The notes under the pieces: model-generated
The model's database searches: none
The model's input: only the letters and a program-made list of their open reading frames with translations
Told to the model about the DNA's origin: nothing
Translations under genes and position numbers: made by a program
In this document: positions 1,794 to 10,928 of the stretch, piece by piece
Layout of the letters: the number at the start of each line of letters is the position of its first letter
Numbering within the stretch: position 1 is the first letter of the stretch
Source of the DNA: a virus
Virus record (IMG/VR): IMGVR_UViG_3300018019_000494
Direction: 5' to 3' (one strand)
DNA length: 11,188 nucleotides

Positions 1794-2151
1794 CCAGATG
1801 AACCGCAGGCGCTTCATCGCCATGCTGGGCATGGCACCGGCGGTGGTCGCGGCGGCCAGGCTTCTGCCCAAGCTAGATGCGGTTGCCAGTGTGTCCACGC
1901 CGGTCACCGCATACGCCGACTCCATCGGGCAAGCACTTGAGTTCGCCCCAAGCCACGGGTACAAACCTGGGGACGTTGTCTGCATCACCGGAACAAGCGG
2001 GGGATGGGACGGCGTCTACCGGATGACCGACGACAGGGTCTTCCGACCGAGACCCTGCTCCGCGCCGTGTACCTGCGCGTGGACAACAACATCGTCAGCG
2101 ATATCGTTCGCGCCGAGACGAAAGACCTCGTCAACGTGGACATCAAGCTGA
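1777..2151 (+). CDS. N-terminal segment with a twin-arginine-like signal and TM helix (MKPKPSQMNRRRFIAMLGMAPAVVAAARLL...). Its coding signal ends near 2040. It is probably the N-terminus of the downstream SPFH protein, joined through a -1 frame change.
   Basis: Frame-1 GC3 is near 100% up to about 2040 and then collapses, at which point the -1 frame (the 2004 ORF) takes over. GGAGAG lies 4 nt upstream of ATG 1777. An alternative ATG is at 1798. Confidence 0.5.
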   Translation: MKPKPSQMNRRRFIAMLGMAPAVVAAARLLPKLDAVASVSTPVTAYADSIGQALEFAPSHGYKPGDVVCITGTSGGWDGVYRMTDDRVFRPRPCSAPCTCAWTTTSSAISFAPRRKTSSTWTSS

Positions 2152-2996
2152 GCTACCGCGTCAACTTCCTGCGTGAGCACAAGGATAGGTGGTTCTCCGT
2201 CGAGAACTACGTCAAGTTCCTGTGCGACCACATGCGCAGCCGCCTGAAGGGCGCGGTGAAGAAGCTCGGCGTGAAGGAGTTCATCGAGAACTCCACCGCC
2301 ATCGTCCGCGACACCATCCTCGGTGCCAAAGTCGGGGGCGAGGTACGCCACTTCACATTCGCTGAGAACGGCATGGACGTCTACGACGTCGAAGTGCTGG
2401 GCGCGACCATCAGCGATGACAAGATCGCCGGGCTGCTCCGCAACGCGCAGCAGACCGCCGTCACCACCGCGATCAACCTGTCGGTCGAGGAAGCCTCCCT
2501 CGAAGCCAAGAAGCGCAGCATTGAGATTCAGTCTCAAGTCGCCAAGCTTGACCACACCCTTGCGACAAAGAAACTGGAACTCGCTTCCACGCTGGAGAAG
2601 GCCGAAGCCGAACAGACCATGGCACGCTTGCAGGAAGAGATCGCGCAGACGGTCGCGAAGATGACCGCCCGCGTGGACGAGCAAGCGCAACTCGACACCA
2701 TCGCCGCCGCGACGCTCACGCGCCGCCAGGGTGAGGAGAACTACACGATCTCGCTGGAACAGCAGCGTGTGGACTTCTTCGCGAAGCGCATGGAAGCCGT
2801 CACCCCGGACCTCATCGCCGCGATGAACACCCTCGGCAACAACGAGTTCGCGACGAAGCTGGCCACCGCAATCGCCCCGCTTGCCCTGCACGAACAGAGC
2901 GGCATCGGAACCACCCTGGAGAAGGTTTTCGCCAACACCCCGTTCGCGACGATCCTTACCAACCTGCAATCCAAGCCCGCGAAGGCCGGTCAATAA
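2004..2996 (+). CDS. SPFH/band-7 (stomatin/HflK/C/flotillin-like) domain protein with a C-terminal coiled-coil Ala/Glu/Gln-rich region
   Basis: The segment ...IVSDIVRAETKDLVNVDIKLSYRV... followed by a long EA/K-rich helix resembles the SPFH core plus coiled coil. GC3 is strong from about 2040 onward. The true N-terminus is probably the 1777 ORF. Confidence 0.65.
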   Translation: MGRRLPDDRRQGLPTETLLRAVYLRVDNNIVSDIVRAETKDLVNVDIKLSYRVNFLREHKDRWFSVENYVKFLCDHMRSRLKGAVKKLGVKEFIENSTAIVRDTILGAKVGGEVRHFTFAENGMDVYDVEVLGATISDDKIAGLLRNAQQTAVTTAINLSVEEASLEAKKRSIEIQSQVAKLDHTLATKKLELASTLEKAEAEQTMARLQEEIAQTVAKMTARVDEQAQLDTIAAATLTRRQGEENYTISLEQQRVDFFAKRMEAVTPDLIAAMNTLGNNEFATKLATAIAPLALHEQSGIGTTLEKVFANTPFATILTNLQSKPAKAGQ

Positions 2997-4261: not shown

Positions 4262-4446
4262 AAGCACAACACATCAGCGGGGACATTTGGGAGTACAAGG
4301 GCTACAAAATCAGGCTTTCTTACTCGCCGGGGTACGAATCGACTGTTTCCGTAGAGGTTGCGGGCGTCCCTCTGGAAGATGGCCTCAGAGATACTTTCTA
4401 TGCCGTCAAAGCGGCAGAAGAGTACATAGACTCCAGGACTGAATGA
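4258..4446 (+). CDS. Hypothetical protein, 62 aa
   Basis: ATGA overlap. AGGAGGG RBS at 4245-4251. Confidence 0.65.
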   Translation: MKAQHISGDIWEYKGYKIRLSYSPGYESTVSVEVAGVPLEDGLRDTFYAVKAAEEYIDSRTE

Positions 4447-4721
4447 GCAACCCGTGTGAGCTATGCGGGCGGACAGCCCTTCCGCTGACGAAGCATCATT
4501 TGATCCCCAAGGCACGGCACAACAAGCGGGTGAGGCGCGACCTCGGCGCGGACAGGAATAAGGTCGCCATGATGTGTCGGCCTTGCCAAAACGCGATCCA
4601 CGCCTTCTTCACGGAGAAGCAGCTTGAGCGCGAGTATTACACCATCGACCTCTTGAAGAAAAACGAGCAGGTGATACACTGGATAGAGTGGGTGAAAAAG
4701 AGACCCACGTGGGGGCTGTGA
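4443..4721 (+). CDS. Small HNH-family endonuclease-like protein, 92 aa
   Basis: CxxC...HH(L)IP...CxxC...H arrangement (CELCG..TKHHLIPKA..CRPCQNAIH). ATGA overlap. Confidence 0.65.
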   Translation: MSNPCELCGRTALPLTKHHLIPKARHNKRVRRDLGADRNKVAMMCRPCQNAIHAFFTEKQLEREYYTIDLLKKNEQVIHWIEWVKKRPTWGL

Positions 4722-7880: not shown

Positions 7881-8120
7881 ATGAGAAAATTCCTGTGCGC
7901 CATCGGGTTCCACGATCCTCAGATCGTCCGCAAGGTCTTTTGGGGAAACGTGCATCACGCCGAACTGAGATGCGCCTGTGGTAAGCGATTCGAGGGTTTC
8001 GTGGCTGGCTCCTTCGGGCGCGTGTACCCGGCAAAGACGCCGTCGGACTTCTGGGTCGCATACGACGCGGGGGCGTTGCTCGCGATCCCTCCATGCTGCG
8101 TCTCAAATTCCCAAAAATAG
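7881..8120 (+). CDS. Hypothetical Cys/His-containing protein, 79 aa
   Basis: ATG 1 nt after the upstream stop. High GC3. Confidence 0.65.
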   Translation: MRKFLCAIGFHDPQIVRKVFWGNVHHAELRCACGKRFEGFVAGSFGRVYPAKTPSDFWVAYDAGALLAIPPCCVSNSQK

Positions 8121-8123
8121 TTC

Positions 8124-8152
8124 TTGACAGTTTTCCAGTTTTTCGGTATCTT
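8124..8152 (+). promoter_or_regulatory. Sigma70-type promoter: -35 TTGACA (8124-8129), 17-bp spacer, -10 TATCTT (8147-8152)
   Basis: AT-rich intergenic island in a GC-rich genome. Perfect -35 hexamer with canonical spacing. Predicted TSS near 8159. Confidence 0.5.
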
Positions 8153-8167
8153 ATGTAGGTGAGAACA

Positions 8168-8269
8168 ATGACCTCAAGGAAACCCAACACGATTGCCCGA
8201 AAGGGCGCGAGCCAGTGGCGGAATCGCCATTCCGGCGCGGGTCTGTTCTCCGATGGGTGGGACGGCTAG
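8168..8269 (+). CDS. Possible 33-aa leader peptide or small protein (MTSRKPNTIARKGASQWRNRHSGAGLFSDGWDG) inside the structured leader
   Basis: AGGTGAG SD 6 nt upstream of ATG 8168. GC3 is about 70%. It overlaps the predicted antiterminator 5' strand. Confidence 0.3.
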   Translation: MTSRKPNTIARKGASQWRNRHSGAGLFSDGWDG

Positions 8270-8294
8270 GCAAGAGTCCCAAATCGAGTTCCAG

Positions 8295-8332
8295 ACCCGC
8301 CAGATGAGAATCTCGGCGGGTTTTTTGCTTTT
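8295..8332 (+). terminator. Intrinsic terminator-like hairpin with a U-tract; possibly a conditional attenuator
   Basis: ACCCGCC/GGCGGGT stem with an inner GAT/ATC stem and a GAGA loop, followed by TTTTTTGCTTTT. It ends 1 nt before tRNA-Trp. Confidence 0.55.
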
Positions 8333-8408
8333 AGGGGAGTAAGATAACCGGCAGTCGGTCGGTCTCCAAAACCGTACAGTGGCGGTTCAAATCCGTCCTC
8401 CCCTGCCA
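8333..8408 (+). tRNA. tRNA-Trp(CCA), 76 nt, CCA encoded
   Basis: Manual cloverleaf: acceptor AGGGGAG/CTCCCCT, U8, A14, G18G19, U33, anticodon CCA, T-loop TTCAAAT, G53-C61. The D-stem first pair and the 27-43 pair are weak (A/G, U/U). Confidence 0.7.
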
Positions 8409-8442
8409 AAGTTTTTGAAAGGAAAGTAGTTACAAGTTCTAT

Positions 8443-8519
8443 GGTGGCGGTCGTCTAGCGGCTAAGACACCTGACTGTGGATCAGGATAGCATGGGTCCG
8501 AATCCCATTCGCCACCCCA
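8443..8519 (+). tRNA. tRNA-His(GUG) with encoded G-1 and C73
   Basis: Acceptor GTGGCGG/TCGCCAC, G-1 at 8443 pairing with C73, perfect D and anticodon stems, loop CTGTGGA. The T-loop TCCGAAT has C at position 55. Confidence 0.8.
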
Positions 8520-8538
8520 ATTTTGAGGAGAGACGTTG

Positions 8539-8614
8539 GTCCGTGTAGCTCAGAAGGAAGAGCACCACGCTCCGAACGTGGAGGTCGCGAGTCCGAGTCT
8601 CGCCATGGACACCA
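8539..8614 (+). tRNA. tRNA-Arg(CCG)
   Basis: Acceptor GTCCGTG/CATGGAC, D-stem GCTC/GAGC, anticodon loop CTCCGAA, T-arm GCGAG-TCCGAGT-CTCGC (C55). Confidence 0.8.
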
Positions 8615-8618
8615 GTTT

Positions 8619-8825
8619 ATGATGACGTTCACGATCAGCGACGAGAAGGCGGCGCAGTACAAGGCGTGGAGCGAAGAGCACCGGAAGACGTGCGGGGCGC
8701 GACCGGATATGAGCATGGCCCTGTACAGCTTCGTGTTCACGCCGAACGGTCTTGGGGACGGCATATCGGTCAAATGCCCCTGCGGCGAGAGGGTATTCCT
8801 CGACGCCGGGGACGAGGATTTATAG
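8619..8825 (+). CDS. Small Cys-containing protein, 68 aa (MMTFTISDEKAAQYKAWSEEHRKTCG...CPCGERVF), located between tRNA genes
   Basis: Very high GC3. It starts 5 nt after tRNA-Arg(CCG) and its stop abuts the next tRNA (8826). The listed longer ORF 8523.. runs through two tRNAs and is rejected. Confidence 0.6.
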   Translation: MMTFTISDEKAAQYKAWSEEHRKTCGARPDMSMALYSFVFTPNGLGDGISVKCPCGERVFLDAGDEDL

Positions 8826-8903
8826 GCGCGTGTAGCTCAGCCGGAATAGAGCGCTATTCTGCGAAGATAGAGGTCGGCGGTCCGAGTCCGCCCATGCGCA
8901 CCA
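8826..8903 (+). tRNA. tRNA-Arg(GCG)
   Basis: Acceptor GCGCGTG/CATGCGC, D-arm GCTC-AGCCGGAATA-GAGC, anticodon loop CTGCGAA (stem with one G-U pair), T-arm GGCGG-TCCGAGT-CCGCC (C55). Confidence 0.75.
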
Positions 8904-8911
8904 AGTTTTTT

Positions 8912-8989
8912 GCCGGGCTAGCCATTGGACATGGCGGCACGCCTTCGAAACGTGCACGTTTGCGGGTTCGAATCCCGCGCCCGGTTCCA
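8912..8989 (+). tRNA. tRNA-Arg(UCG)-like with a non-canonical anticodon arm (9-nt loop CCTTCGAAA, or a 7-nt loop closed by a C/A mismatch)
   Basis: Acceptor GCCGGGC/GCCCGGT (G1-U72), T-arm GCGGG-TTCGAAT-CCCGC, anticodon stem GCACG/CGTGC. The anticodon assignment TCG is inferred from U33 placement. Followed by a T8 run. Confidence 0.55.
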
Positions 8990-8999
8990 GGTTTTTTTT

Positions 9000-9077
9000 G
9001 CGCCCGTAGCTCAGCGGAATAAGAGCATTGGTCTACGAAACCAAGGGTCGCGTGTTCGAATCACGCCGGGCGCACCA
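9000..9077 (+). tRNA. tRNA-Arg(ACG)
   Basis: Acceptor GCGCCCG/CGGGCGC, D-arm GCTC-AGCGGAATAA-GAGC, anticodon loop CTACGAA with a perfect stem, T-arm GCGTG-TTCGAAT-CACGC. Confidence 0.85.
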
Positions 9078-9081
9078 ACAT

Positions 9082-9168
9082 TGAGGTGTAGGGGAATCGG
9101 TAGACCCACCTGGCTGTTACCCAGGAGCCGAAAGGCACTTGCAGGTTCGAAGCCTGCCGCCTCAGCCA
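9082..9168 (+). tRNA. Atypical 87-nt class-II-like tRNA: Leu-like D-arm (GGG-GAATCGGTAGA-CCC), long variable arm, but anticodon GUU (Asn), U1-A72 and G73
   Basis: Acceptor TGAGGTG/CGCCTCA, perfect anticodon stem CCTGG/CCAGG with loop CTGTTAC, variable arm AGCCGAAAGGCACTT, T-arm GCAGG-TTCGAAG-CCTGC, CCA encoded. Confidence 0.55.
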
Positions 9169-9186
9169 GTTTAGAGGGAGGATTCA

Positions 9187-9518
<332 letters not shown>

Positions 9519-9523
9519 AGTTT

Positions 9524-9598
9524 GGGTCTGTAATTCAGCGGCTAGAAGCCCTCGCTCTTAACGAGGTAACGAGAGTTCGAGTCTCTCCAGACCCACCA
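9524..9598 (+). tRNA. tRNA-Lys(CUU), copy 1
   Basis: Acceptor GGGTCTG/CAGACCC, A73, anticodon stem CCTCG/CGAGG, loop CTCTTAA, T-arm GAGAG-TTCGAGT-CTCTC. The D-stem has one A/G mismatch. Confidence 0.75.
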
Positions 9599-9618
9599 GG
9601 CATCTGATAGAATAGGGC

Positions 9619-10020
9619 ATGAACAAGAAAGCTCAAGGCACTCGGTCAGTCGGTGCGGTGATGAGCCACTTCATCAAAGCAGGCAAAATCGTCTTGATGC
9701 CGATTGGAGACAATGAGCGATACGATTTCGTCATTGATGAGGATGGGCGGTTTCGGCGTATTCAAGTCAAAACGGGCAAGGTCAAGAACGGAGCGATAGA
9801 GTTTAGTACCGCCAGCACTAATCTTGAAAACGGTAAGTGGGTGAGACACGGTTATAGGGGACAGATTGACGATTTCGCAGTTTACTGCCCTAAACTCGAC
9901 AAGGTTTACCTTGTGCCTATAGACGAAGCAGGTGGTCAGACACACTGTTCTTTGCGGCTTGAGCCAGCGAAGAACGGTCAACAAAAGGGCATTAGGCTGG
10001 CTGAGCAGTACGAGGTTTAG
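9619..10020 (+). CDS. PD-(D/E)xK-fold nuclease-like protein (Hjc/YraN-UPF0102-like), 133 aa, with foreign composition
   Basis: GC is about 50% and GC3 about 55%, versus about 85% GC3 in the flanking genes. The pattern G..G...FIKAGKIVL...DFVID-x7-RIQVKTGK resembles the core of YraN/Hjc-like nucleases. Its stop codon shares its last base with tRNA-Lys copy 2. Confidence 0.6.
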   Translation: MNKKAQGTRSVGAVMSHFIKAGKIVLMPIGDNERYDFVIDEDGRFRRIQVKTGKVKNGAIEFSTASTNLENGKWVRHGYRGQIDDFAVYCPKLDKVYLVPIDEAGGQTHCSLRLEPAKNGQQKGIRLAEQYEV

Positions 10021-10095
10021 GGCTACTAACTCAACTGGTAGAGTAGCAGACTCTTAATCTGCGAGTTCGGGGTTCGAGTCCCCGGTGGCCCACCA
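10020..10095 (+). tRNA. tRNA-Lys(CUU), copy 2, with a different sequence from copy 1
   Basis: Acceptor GGGCTAC/GTGGCCC, D-arm ACTC-AACTGGTA-GAGT, anticodon stem GCAGA/TCTGC, loop CTCTTAA, T-arm CGGGG-TTCGAGT-CCCCG, A73. Confidence 0.8.
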
Positions 10096-10134
10096 AGTTT
10101 CCGGGTATTAGAACTCTTAGGATAGGAGGTCAGC

Positions 10135-10680
10135 ATGCCCGACGTACTGGTTCTCGACATGAACTACCGCCCTGTCGGCTTCAAGTCCTGGCAGGACGCG
10201 ATCACGAACGTGTGGAAGGAGCGGGCCATCGTCGTCAAGGAGGACGAGTCCGGCCTGAAGCTCCACTCCCCGTCGTTCGAGGTCGGGATGCCGAGGGTGA
10301 TCCGCGTGCGCAACGCCTGGGTGAAGCGGCGCAAGACATCCGTGCCGTTCTCGCGGCGCAACCTGTACGTCCGCGACGGCGGCGAGTGCCAGTACTGCGG
10401 TAGGCACCTCAAGCTGGAGGAGTACACCCTCGATCACGTGATCCCGCGTTCGCAGGGCGGCGTGAGTTCGTGGGTCAACATGGTCCTCGCCTGCATGCGC
10501 TGCAACAAGCACAAGGCGGGCCGGACGCCGCAGCAGGCAGGGATGCCCCTCCTGCACAAGCCCGTCGTCCCGAAGGTGGACGACCCGAAGTACAACTTCA
10601 AGCTCCACATCCGCAAGATGCGGCCCGAGTGGAAAGAATGGGAGAATTTCCTTTACTGGAATATCGAGCTTGACGAGTAG
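10135..10680 (+). CDS. HNH endonuclease, 181 aa
   Basis: TAGGAGGT RBS. Motifs CQYCG...LDHVIPRSQGG...N...CMRCNKHK (the HNH zinc-finger core). Confidence 0.8.
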   Translation: MPDVLVLDMNYRPVGFKSWQDAITNVWKERAIVVKEDESGLKLHSPSFEVGMPRVIRVRNAWVKRRKTSVPFSRRNLYVRDGGECQYCGRHLKLEEYTLDHVIPRSQGGVSSWVNMVLACMRCNKHKAGRTPQQAGMPLLHKPVVPKVDDPKYNFKLHIRKMRPEWKEWENFLYWNIELDE

Positions 10681-10694
10681 ATCAAGCGACAAGC

Positions 10695-10718
10695 CCCGGA
10701 GGAGCAACCCTCCTCCGG
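10695..10718 (+). terminator. Strong GC hairpin (CCCGGAGGAG-CAAC-CTCCTCCGGG) without a good U-tract; a possible terminator or processing/stability element
   Basis: Perfect 10-bp stem, 14 nt after the HNH stop and 9 nt before tRNA-Arg(CCU). Confidence 0.35.
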
Positions 10719-10727
10719 GCGAAATTT

Positions 10728-10805
10728 GGCCCCGTAGCTCAGCGGAATAAGAGCGACGCACTCCTAACGCGTAGGTCACTGGTCCGAATCCAGTCGGGGT
10801 CACCA
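10728..10805 (+). tRNA. tRNA-Arg(CCU)
   Basis: Acceptor GGCCCCG/CGGGGTC, D-arm identical to that of Arg(ACG), anticodon loop CTCCTAA with an A31/C39 mismatch, T-arm ACTGG-TCCGAAT-CCAGT (C55). Confidence 0.7.
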
Positions 10806-10818
10806 ATTTTTGAGTTGT

Positions 10819-10892
10819 TGCCTCCTCGTCCAACGGTAGGACACGGGTCTCTGGAACCCGGTATCGCGGTTCGAATCCTCGGGAGGCAGCCA
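10819..10892 (+). tRNA. tRNA-Gln(CUG), U1-A72, G73
   Basis: Acceptor TGCCTCC/GGAGGCA, D-arm GTCC-AACGGTA-GGAC, anticodon stem CGGGT/ACCCG, loop CTCTGGA, T-loop TTCGAAT (the T-stem has one C/U mismatch). Confidence 0.75.
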
Positions 10893-10899
10893 AATTTGC

Positions 10900-10928
10900 T
10901 GGACAATGCCGCGAAAATGCGGTATAAT
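10900..10928 (+). promoter_or_regulatory. Sigma70-type promoter: -35 TGGACA, 17-bp spacer, perfect -10 TATAAT (10923-10928); predicted TSS at or next to the ATG (leaderless)
   Basis: AT-rich island directly after tRNA-Gln. Consensus hexamers with optimal spacing. The ATG at 10936 lies 7-8 nt after the -10 element. Confidence 0.6.

Follow-up and report, generated by a model that had tools for sequence, protein, structure and literature searches.

A conserved attenuator-like switch very probably precedes the tRNA gene cluster of an uncultivated, very large phage represented by IMG/VR virus record IMGVR_UViG_3300018019_000494. The element occupies positions 8,124 to 8,332 of the 11,188-nucleotide (nt) stretch that we analyzed, hereafter the window, whose genes are all encoded on the + strand. 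With a probability of about 0.6, we interpret this compact, 210-nt element as a ribosome-mediated (leader-peptide) transcription attenuator that would gate a cluster of Trp, His, Arg, Asn, Lys and Gln tRNA genes through stalling of ribosomes at a run of cognate codons. The case is built from the anatomy of the leader, its conservation, its folding energetics and the match between its codons and the downstream tRNA genes. The strongest argument for attenuation is the last of these, a codon run mirroring the tRNA set, which was absent from a first-pass annotation that had described a promoter, a structured leader and a terminator in front of the tRNAs.

Searches of GenBank phages with megablast and blastn gave matches at the tRNA level only and no near relative of the window. 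The relatives are metagenomic contigs of 100-894 kilobases (kb) from peat and wetland samples, part of them in IMG/VR, which we traced from three queries: the gene for a protein of 79 amino acids (aa) ending at 8120, the leader peptide, and the HNH gene within the tRNA cluster. Eight distinct versions of the element were recovered: the window (= L016), the L002 type, L010/L011, L020, L022, L024, the L025 type and L037. Together they provide nine leader sequences from eight distinct lineages. In each lineage the element lies directly 5' of the first tRNA of a homologous cluster, with promoter, open reading frame (ORF), antiterminator pairing and terminator in homologous positions, and its recurrence in eight lineages therefore rules it out as a chance feature of a single sequence. 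Scanning IMG/VR with the exact pattern of the element or with leader-peptide patterns returned 0 matches in either case; a motif common to L001, a more distant relative, and the window matched L001's own contig only, and a pattern combining the codon run with the antiterminator 5' arm matched the L024 and L025 lineages only. Several of the contigs are long (L018, 436 kb; L024, 456 kb), and L002 (Ga0374055_0000025) reaches 894,233 bp. This exceeds the largest phage genomes known to us; the contig may be concatemeric or misassembled, or the genome may truly be that large.

The features of the element are collected in Table 1. The promoter, the ORF with its Shine-Dalgarno sequence, the three small hairpins, the 9-base-pair (bp) pairing, the terminator stem, the T-run and the adjoining tRNA are all found where the first-pass annotation had placed them.

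Table 1. Coordinates of the predicted attenuator and the unit downstream of it in the window
Feature	Position	Strand	Details
Sigma-70-type promoter	8124..8152	+	-35 TTGACA 8124-8129, 17-nt spacer, -10 TATCTT 8147-8152
Shine-Dalgarno-like AGGUGAG	8157..8163	+	4 nt 5' of AUG; from sequence
Region 1 candidate (GAGAACA..GACC, over Shine-Dalgarno and AUG)	8161..8173	+	pairs with 8240-8250 in the minimum free energy fold before region 3 is made; weak
Leader ORF, 33 codons, MTSRKPNTIARKGASQWRNRHSGAGLFSDGWDG	8168..8269	+	stop UAG 8267-8269; kept in 8 lineages
GNRA hairpin P2, GCCC-GAAA-GGGC	8195..8206	+	one clade only
Putative regulatory codon run CAG UGG CGG AAU CGC CAU (Q16 W17 R18 N19 R20 H21)	8213..8230	+	codon/tRNA match
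Hairpin P3, AGUGGCG-GAAU-CGCCAUU	8214..8231	+	made of run codons; from folds
Region 2, antiterminator 5' arm	8237..8254	+	core GCGGGUCUG 8237-8245, CUC 8248-8250, GAU 8252-8254; codons 24-29
Apical hairpin of antiterminator, UGGGAC...GUCCCA	8258..8281	+	stop codon 8267-8269 at apex
Region 3, antiterminator 3' arm	8283..8300	+	AUCGAG 8283-8288, core CAGACCCGC 8292-8300
Intrinsic terminator	8293..8332	+	hairpin 8293-8323, -19.7 kcal/mol (RNAfold); U6-GC-U4 to 8332
Putative regulated unit	8333..10892	+	12 tRNA genes, small ORFs, PD-(D/E)XK gene, HNH gene

Transcription is predicted to start near 8159, about 10 nt before the leader ORF. The window has only five sigma-70-like sites, the leader promoter among them, and our promoter scan detected no further such site on the + strand between 8152 and 10900. 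A TTGACA-N17-TAnnAT promoter stands at the homologous place in L002, L010, L011, L020 and L024 and 120 nt further upstream in L025; the L022 and L037 leaders have a -10-like box only. The 174-nt leader RNA is highly structured, with a minimum free energy (MFE) of -72.6 kcal/mol and a z-score of -3.6 (0 of 200 shuffled sequences were as stable).

The core of the element is a pair of competing helices. In all nine leaders, the last 6-10 codons of the ORF make up the 5' arm of a long hairpin, the antiterminator, whose 3' arm is the 3' untranslated region (UTR). The 5' arm reaches the stop codon in all eight lineages (gap of -2 to +5 nt), leaving the stop at the apex. Downstream of it, the terminator stem of the window pairs ACCCGCC (8295-8301) with GGCGGGU (8315-8321). 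Positions 8293-8300 belong both to region 3 and to the terminator 5' arm, 8 of whose 13 nt pair with the ORF in the antiterminator; across the leaders, 5-11 nt of the terminator 5' arm pair alternatively with ORF codons (9/9). Because these 5-11 nt are common to the two arms, the structures are mutually exclusive, and the leader has the 2:3 antiterminator, exclusive with a 3:4 terminator and U tract, that characterizes attenuators. The mutual exclusivity of the 9-bp helix 8237-8245/8292-8300 and the terminator stem, proposed in the first pass, is borne out, and the pairing is more stable than in shuffled sequences in all nine leaders. It is also conserved in homologous phages, with the alternative pairing kept in eight lineages.

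We compared the energies of the two states. The antiterminator is predicted at -28 to -42 kcal/mol and the terminator at -15 to -22 kcal/mol over the nine leaders (-32 and -20 kcal/mol in the window), and dinucleotide shuffles of the ORF part were as stable as the observed antiterminator in only 0-17 of 300 trials per lineage. When transcripts ending after region 3 were folded in four lineages (the window, L002, L010 and L011), the antiterminator was the MFE structure in each; the terminator state won at full length only. A MAFFT alignment of the nine leaders misplaced region 2 of L037 and several outer pairs, so we relied on per-lineage folds and duplex matrices. In L037 all three strands are replaced (CGGAGGAGUG / CACCCUCCG / CGGAGGG) and are still mutually complementary. 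The cognate L037 duplex reaches -23.3 kcal/mol, against -10.5 to -20.4 kcal/mol for non-cognate combinations, and L025 shows the same trend. The inner stem of the terminator covaries freely among relatives, both partners being changed in four pairs.

The terminator abuts the first tRNA gene: tRNA-Trp of the window begins one base after the U tract, and a 17-nt gap is seen in one lineage. This arrangement leaves no room for another promoter between terminator and tRNA. A simple terminator scan missed the window terminator because of a bulge in its stem. Canonical terminator-tRNA junctions fall at the first tRNA of each cluster; other matches in the terminator-tRNA scan were mostly artefacts of tRNA T-arms, along with a small hairpin that precedes the second tRNA in L022. 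We also considered whether the terminator might simply close the upstream operon, which fails to account for the element's own promoter or for the competing helix. A transfer-messenger RNA (tmRNA) or tRNA-like reading of GGGUCUG...CAGACCCGCCA was unsupported by ARAGORN and Rfam, this helix being the antiterminator, and neither tool found a tmRNA, a tRNA-like gene or another stable RNA gene in the leader.

The pattern of change in the leader ORF indicates translation, or at a minimum selection to keep the frame open. A promoter-proximal ORF is kept in all eight lineages with a length of 25-49 codons, preceded by Shine-Dalgarno-like purine stretches that are weak in some, and its indels are in frame (3, 12 and 48 nt). 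An in-frame 3-nt insertion occurs among the three closest lineages, the 12- and 48-nt indels belonging to more distant lineages, and the stop codon is held in place (UAG or UAA), with similarity between leaders collapsing directly 3' of it. Close relatives have 0 substitutions at codon position 1, and their first 21 codons differ almost only synonymously. Identical codons are used at 75-85% of conserved residues, compared with 51-72% in most neighboring genes, although one small neighbor (71-81%) overlaps this range. The high synonymous conservation fits a constraint on RNA pairing or codon identity in addition to coding. In the first pass, the overlap of the ORF with the antiterminator was taken as reminiscent of leader-peptide control of the tRNA array, an idea that gains support from the kept ORF, the stop codon at the apex and the conserved pairing.

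A conserved reading frame could also mark an early gene of ordinary type that stands alone, with its own promoter and terminator, and encodes a small arginine-rich (basic) peptide. The tRNAs would then come from other transcripts or through leaky read-through, and the pairings would be incidental or serve mRNA stability. The N-terminal 21 residues are indeed near-invariant in the three closest lineages, where changes are synonymous, and other small genes with the same promoter type occur inside the tRNA region. Arginine-rich peptides with Trp are also known as RNA binders, as in phage lambda, whose N protein (107 aa, arginine-rich) binds the GNRA-like boxB hairpin and needs Nus factors and nut sites. 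The leader shares with N/boxB a terminator to overcome, an arginine-rich peptide that contains Trp and a GNRA hairpin on one transcript with it; unlike in lambda, most lineages lack the GNRA hairpin, and the peptide consists of no further region than the basic run. Peptide length ranges over 25-49 aa among the eight lineages, the run residues are permuted, and the C-terminus is unconserved (GWDG, EVNV, STDVV, VELV), as is the C-terminal third as a whole. The N-terminal region and length are likewise poorly conserved between distant lineages. Such poor conservation outside the run is what one would expect of a leader peptide. Searches of 5.8 billion clustered and 1.84 billion representative proteins found homologues in the clade itself only, and the peptide does not behave as a conserved small-protein family beyond its immediate clade; two further matches of the peptide search were low-complexity repeat proteins and were discarded. 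A stand-alone gene would also leave unaccounted for the apical stop in a terminator-competing hairpin, the coherent strand change of L037 and a run comprising the exact amino acids of the downstream tRNAs. We consider this alternative unlikely, even with the 1:2 pairing non-significant (see below).

The leader-peptide reading draws its main weight from the codons themselves. Just 5' of region 2, every leader encodes 6-10 consecutive W/H/R/N/K/Q codons: QWRNRH, QWRNNRH, RKQWRNRH, NHQRNNRW, RKHQRRNNRW, RQRKHNNRW and, in L037, NQRWHK. The order of residues differs by lineage and the composition is constant. These six residues account for 24.5% of neighboring proteins, and runs of the observed length are rare in random windows (empirical p ≤ 0.005 per leader; 0 of 20,000 for L024 and L025). 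In every leader, a stretch of 6-11 residues is enough to include all six amino acids (p 3e-5 to 9e-3). The window has further cognate codons 5' of the run, AGG (R4), AAA (K5), AAC (N7), CGA (R11) and AAG (K12). The hypothesis of a cognate run came first, from the window and its nearest relatives; the leaders fetched later, L020, L022, L024, L025 and L037, agree with it.

The same six amino acids make up the whole set specified by the downstream tRNA genes in most lineages, with L025 adding one Phe tRNA. The 12 tRNAs of the window are Trp, His, Arg-CCG, Arg-GCG, Arg-UCG, Arg-ACG, two Asn, two Lys-CUU, Arg-CCU and Gln-CUG. Nearly all run codons (59/60) can be decoded by a tRNA gene of their own locus, and the run is, as in a leader-peptide attenuator, cognate to the downstream tRNA supply. 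The sole exception is a Trp codon in L024, where a tRNA-Trp-like gene is visible; this gene (4427-4505) carries an insertion and was not called by ARAGORN. Two other tRNA genes are unusual: L025 5531-5601, which ARAGORN reports with a two-base 'anticodon' (ta) and Rfam scores as tRNA at 44.5 bits, and a tRNA-Asn of 87 nt at 9082-9168 of the window.

The same anatomy would serve a translation-dependent attenuator that responds to another signal, such as the general availability of ribosomes after infection or an arrest by the nascent peptide in the manner of TnaC or SecM, which might sense a small molecule. A motif R-N-(N)-R-(W/H)-F-G is fairly conserved in the peptides of seven of the eight lineages and could reflect an interaction with the exit tunnel. 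Order and length of the run vary (compare QWRNRH, RKHQRRNNRW, RQRKHNNRW and NQRWHK), which is atypical of arrest peptides, and the exact match to the tRNA set would go unexplained; such a signal therefore seems improbable to us.

In the cognate-stalling model, which would operate as follows, we infer that ribosomes stall, in which direction the response runs and that translation is coupled to transcription. Host RNA polymerase would start at the promoter and a ribosome would load on the leader ORF. An undelayed ribosome would pass the run, unwind and occupy the last ORF codons, which form the antiterminator 5' arm, and park at the apical UAG. Region 3 would then be free to pair with region 4, the terminator would form, and transcription would end at about 8326-8332, just before tRNA-Trp. 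If a cognate charged tRNA were scarce, the ribosome would stall with its A site on run codons, 12-36 nt, or in the window 9-24 nt, upstream of region 2, which would remain free to capture the emerging region 3, blocking the terminator and allowing read-through into the tRNA genes. The new tRNAs would relieve the stall, and their accumulation would shut transcription off in a feedback loop. In this way, a shortage in any of six decoding capacities would raise transcription of the matching tRNA genes. The distance from the run to region 2, which is 3' of it, is 4-36 nt, and for most run codons it is 12 nt or more, so that a ribosome stalled there would be expected to leave region 2 free. Positions across lineages and ribosome-masking fold simulations both agree with attenuator geometry. 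Hairpin P3, at a position where other lineages form hairpins with other stems (CAGCGG/CCGCUG in L022, CAGCG/CGCUG in L024, CCAGCG/CGCUGG in L025, UGGCAU/AUGCCA in L037), is a plausible candidate for an RNA polymerase pause hairpin that would synchronize ribosome and polymerase.

Several observations weigh against attenuation by cognate stalling. The evidence for it is computational throughout. The lineages are homologous, with perhaps five of them effectively independent, and the p-values of the codon runs are accordingly non-independent. Enrichment of W/H/R/N/K/Q over the whole peptide is modest (38-48% versus 24.5%, p 0.03-0.1), the signal being the run, and the run in turn partly forms hairpin P3, which couples its codons by complementarity (CAG with CUGG, UGG with CCAU). 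Compensatory change in the antiterminator helix, raised as a check in the first pass, is seen in the coherent three-strand replacement of L037; elsewhere the core 2:3 helix (GGGUCUG/CAGACCC) is conserved rather than covarying, and a 2:3 strand-swap test among the three closest lineages was equivocal, as was the 1:2 swap. MFE folds pair region 2 with the 5' UTR, the AUG or early codons in every lineage, but the 1:2 partner shifts between lineages and the duplex is no better than shuffles in 6/8. A ribosome parked at the stop codon of the window's leader would cover only the apical part of the antiterminator hairpin and not the 9-bp core of region 2. The arginine-rich peptide could have a function of its own. 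Lastly, two more distant relatives, L001/L012 and L034-36, have a cognate-rich short ORF and no terminator. Either the rule is broader and mechanistically varied, or it is partly coincidental, and these leaders neither confirm nor refute the generality of the attenuator.

L001 (6223-6405; = L012-L015, L019) belongs to a 155-kb phage. Downstream of its homologue of the 79-aa gene come a promoter of the same type, a 20-codon ORF that is apparently leaderless, MRNLNPMRPQPKWLGVYVTD, and a cluster of four Pro and two Met tRNA genes. The CCA, CCG and CCC codons of this ORF match the three Pro anticodons, and an internal AUG is also present. Its stop codon lies in the apex of a long hairpin, with no intrinsic terminator 3' of the ORF. 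The leaders of L001 and the window have AACCCAAYRCGA and GCGGAAUNNCC in common. L034 (3840-4170; = L035, L036) has about 300 nt of G+C-rich, apparently structured sequence with a tRNA-like 3' end, GGTTCGACTCCGACCGGTCACCCCA, for which Rfam gave no match at the gathering threshold and ARAGORN no call. Its 20-codon ORF, MTRRNPGRPGYRDQWTPPLD, has a stop codon that abuts tRNA-Arg(CCG) of a mixed Arg/Asn/Lys/Phe/Met/Pro/Gln/Trp cluster.

A switch of this kind might also work without translation, if a three-way junction at 8161-8250 (P1, P2 and P3) bound a ligand, a protein or a tRNA in the manner of a riboswitch or T-box. The MFE structure of the window and its closest relatives is such a junction, its closing helix sequesters region 2, and a GAAA to GCAA change and a 3-nt insertion both keep the helices. 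The junction with its GNRA hairpin is confined to the clade of the window, L002 and L010 and is deleted or rearranged elsewhere, which makes a ligand-binding aptamer unlikely. P2 itself, one of the hairpins of the first pass, has a GCAA loop in L010/L011, is deleted in L020 and has no counterpart in the folds of L024, L025 and L037. It is probably dispensable. The junction was likewise not recovered in L022, L024, L025 or L037. Rfam gave no match on 8050-8332 at E ≤ 10, and only tRNA matches on the window and six related loci, which leaves a riboswitch-like aptamer unsupported. P1 is no better than chance, and the conserved ORF, the in-frame indels and the stop-codon geometry would be left unexplained. 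We regard a translation-independent switch as very unlikely.

T-boxes nonetheless offer a useful comparison, as they too make an antiterminator/terminator choice in response to tRNA status. T-boxes bind uncharged tRNA directly, without translation, and regulate aminoacyl-tRNA synthetase or amino-acid genes. The sequence GGGUGGGAC of the window loosely resembles the T-box sequence, a point in favor of an RNA switch; it falls in the G-W-D codons and is lost in L020, L025 and L037. The Rfam T-box model was unmatched, and the leader has neither a Stem I nor a specifier loop.

The main product could instead be the terminated transcript, acting in trans as a small RNA (sRNA) of about 170 nt and/or as a dual sRNA-peptide, with tRNA control secondary. 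The element has its own promoter, a strong terminator and a highly structured RNA, and the terminated leader transcript would itself be that RNA. The rnTrpL sRNA and peTrpL peptide of Sinorhizobium meliloti, a terminated leader of similar size encoding a short peptide, show that attenuator leaders can act in trans (PMC6614838, PMC7968998). The element differs from rnTrpL/peTrpL in sequence, host and regulated genes, and there is no evidence here of a trans target. We identified no target-pairing region or conserved single-stranded seed, and what the lineages conserve is the run in the ORF together with the competing helices. An sRNA would moreover be compatible with attenuation rather than excluding it. 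As the main role of the element, we give it very little credence.

Structured non-tRNA transcripts in or beside phage tRNA clusters have a precedent in the species 1 and 2 RNAs of T4 (rnaC/rnaD), stable small RNAs that are co-encoded with the tRNA cluster and processed from a tRNA precursor. To our knowledge, these have no ORF, terminator switch or regulatory role. The closer parallel to the element is the family of enterobacterial leader-peptide attenuators, trpL, hisL, pheL, leuL, thrL and ilvL/ivbL, together with that of pheST (pheM), some of which sample several amino acids (Thr and Ile in thrL; Ile, Leu and Val in ilvL). Like these, it has a promoter-proximal short ORF with a regulatory run and a 2:3 helix competing with an intrinsic 3:4 terminator just 5' of the regulated genes, and in our model a stalled ribosome would free region 2 and a ribosome finishing the ORF would prevent 2:3 pairing. 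It differs in that the stop codon lies at the antiterminator apex and not between regions 1 and 2, in lacking a demonstrably conserved 1:2 pairing and any sequence homology, in sampling six amino acids, and in being phage-borne. Above all, the regulated genes would be tRNAs, the sensed molecules themselves. The regulated genes of all leader-peptide attenuators known to us are amino-acid biosynthesis or aminoacyl-tRNA synthetase genes, and downstream of the element we find 12 tRNA genes, small ORFs and nucleases. In full-text literature searches we found no tRNA genes or tRNA operon described as controlled by a leader peptide. The K-12 sequence of Escherichia coli shows no attenuator 5' of pheV, and the literature searches gave none there either.

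Phage tRNA genes are usually seen as constitutive supplements to codon usage or as decoys against tRNA-targeting defenses, and host anticodon nucleases typically hit Lys, Arg, His or Asn tRNAs. RNA-repair-type genes lie near the element: RlaP is encoded 5' of the leader in both the window and its relatives, and the tRNA cluster of L037 contains an RNA ligase. Because of this proximity, the circuit might, speculatively, respond to tRNA cleavage by host defenses. We tentatively raise, as a doubtful extension of the attenuator, that the leader is a codon-resolved sensor of tRNA shortage within an inducible, self-limiting counter-defense circuit that replaces host-cleaved tRNAs. If so, these would be the first tRNA genes known under leader-peptide attenuation. 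If attenuation by cognate stalling itself proves true, with or without a role in counter-defense, a clade of 100-900 kb environmental phages would meter its tRNA output by having a ribosome test-read the cognate codons. Textbook attenuation would then extend to a new class of regulated genes in which the sensed molecule is the product, and huge phages would control translation-related genes through direct feedback. A search rule for more such circuits follows from the anatomy: a terminator abutting the first tRNA gene, together with a short ORF whose run mirrors the cluster.

Promoters related to that of the leader occur elsewhere in the clade, and a GCGGTA / CAGTA extension 5' of the -10 box is common to them. 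The L002 lineage alone has a second promoter, TTGACA-N17-TACTCT followed by about 85 nt of unassigned sequence, directly 5' of the leader promoter (L002 6246-6362; = L018 2837-2953). A near-consensus promoter, TGGACA-17-TATAAT, follows tRNA-Gln at 10900-10928 of the window, with homologues at L010 11352 and L011 6041, and drives a small conserved protein (MNSTLKTILK...) that is probably a membrane protein.

The window also encodes an MVP-shoulder (vault-like) protein, an RlaP nucleotidyltransferase, a PD-(D/E)XK nuclease and an HNH nuclease. The MVP-domain gene (MVP_shoulder, Vault_3) encodes 810-826 aa in relatives and lies a few kb 5' of the tRNA cluster (window 2004-2996; L010 285-2747; L002 1-43; L025 1-704). 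Of this gene, the window keeps intact only a 330-aa ORF, which has the shoulder domain (1.3e-25); what lies upstream is seemingly split over several ORFs. Between tRNA-Trp and tRNA-His, relatives carry a truncated gene like that for histidyl-tRNA synthetase (tRNA-synt_His / tRNA-synt_2b, 144-177 aa; L002 6838-7311, L010 8378-8911, L011 2171-2605, L020 4105-4566). The window is without it, and seemingly only its ribosome-binding region is left, at 8409-8443. Other cargo near the tRNA clusters of relatives includes a Cas12f1-like/TnpB-type gene (L029 12140-12811), the RNA ligase of L037 (9496-10227), and a PARP-domain protein and amino-acid permeases in L020 (12513-13877), L010 and L025.

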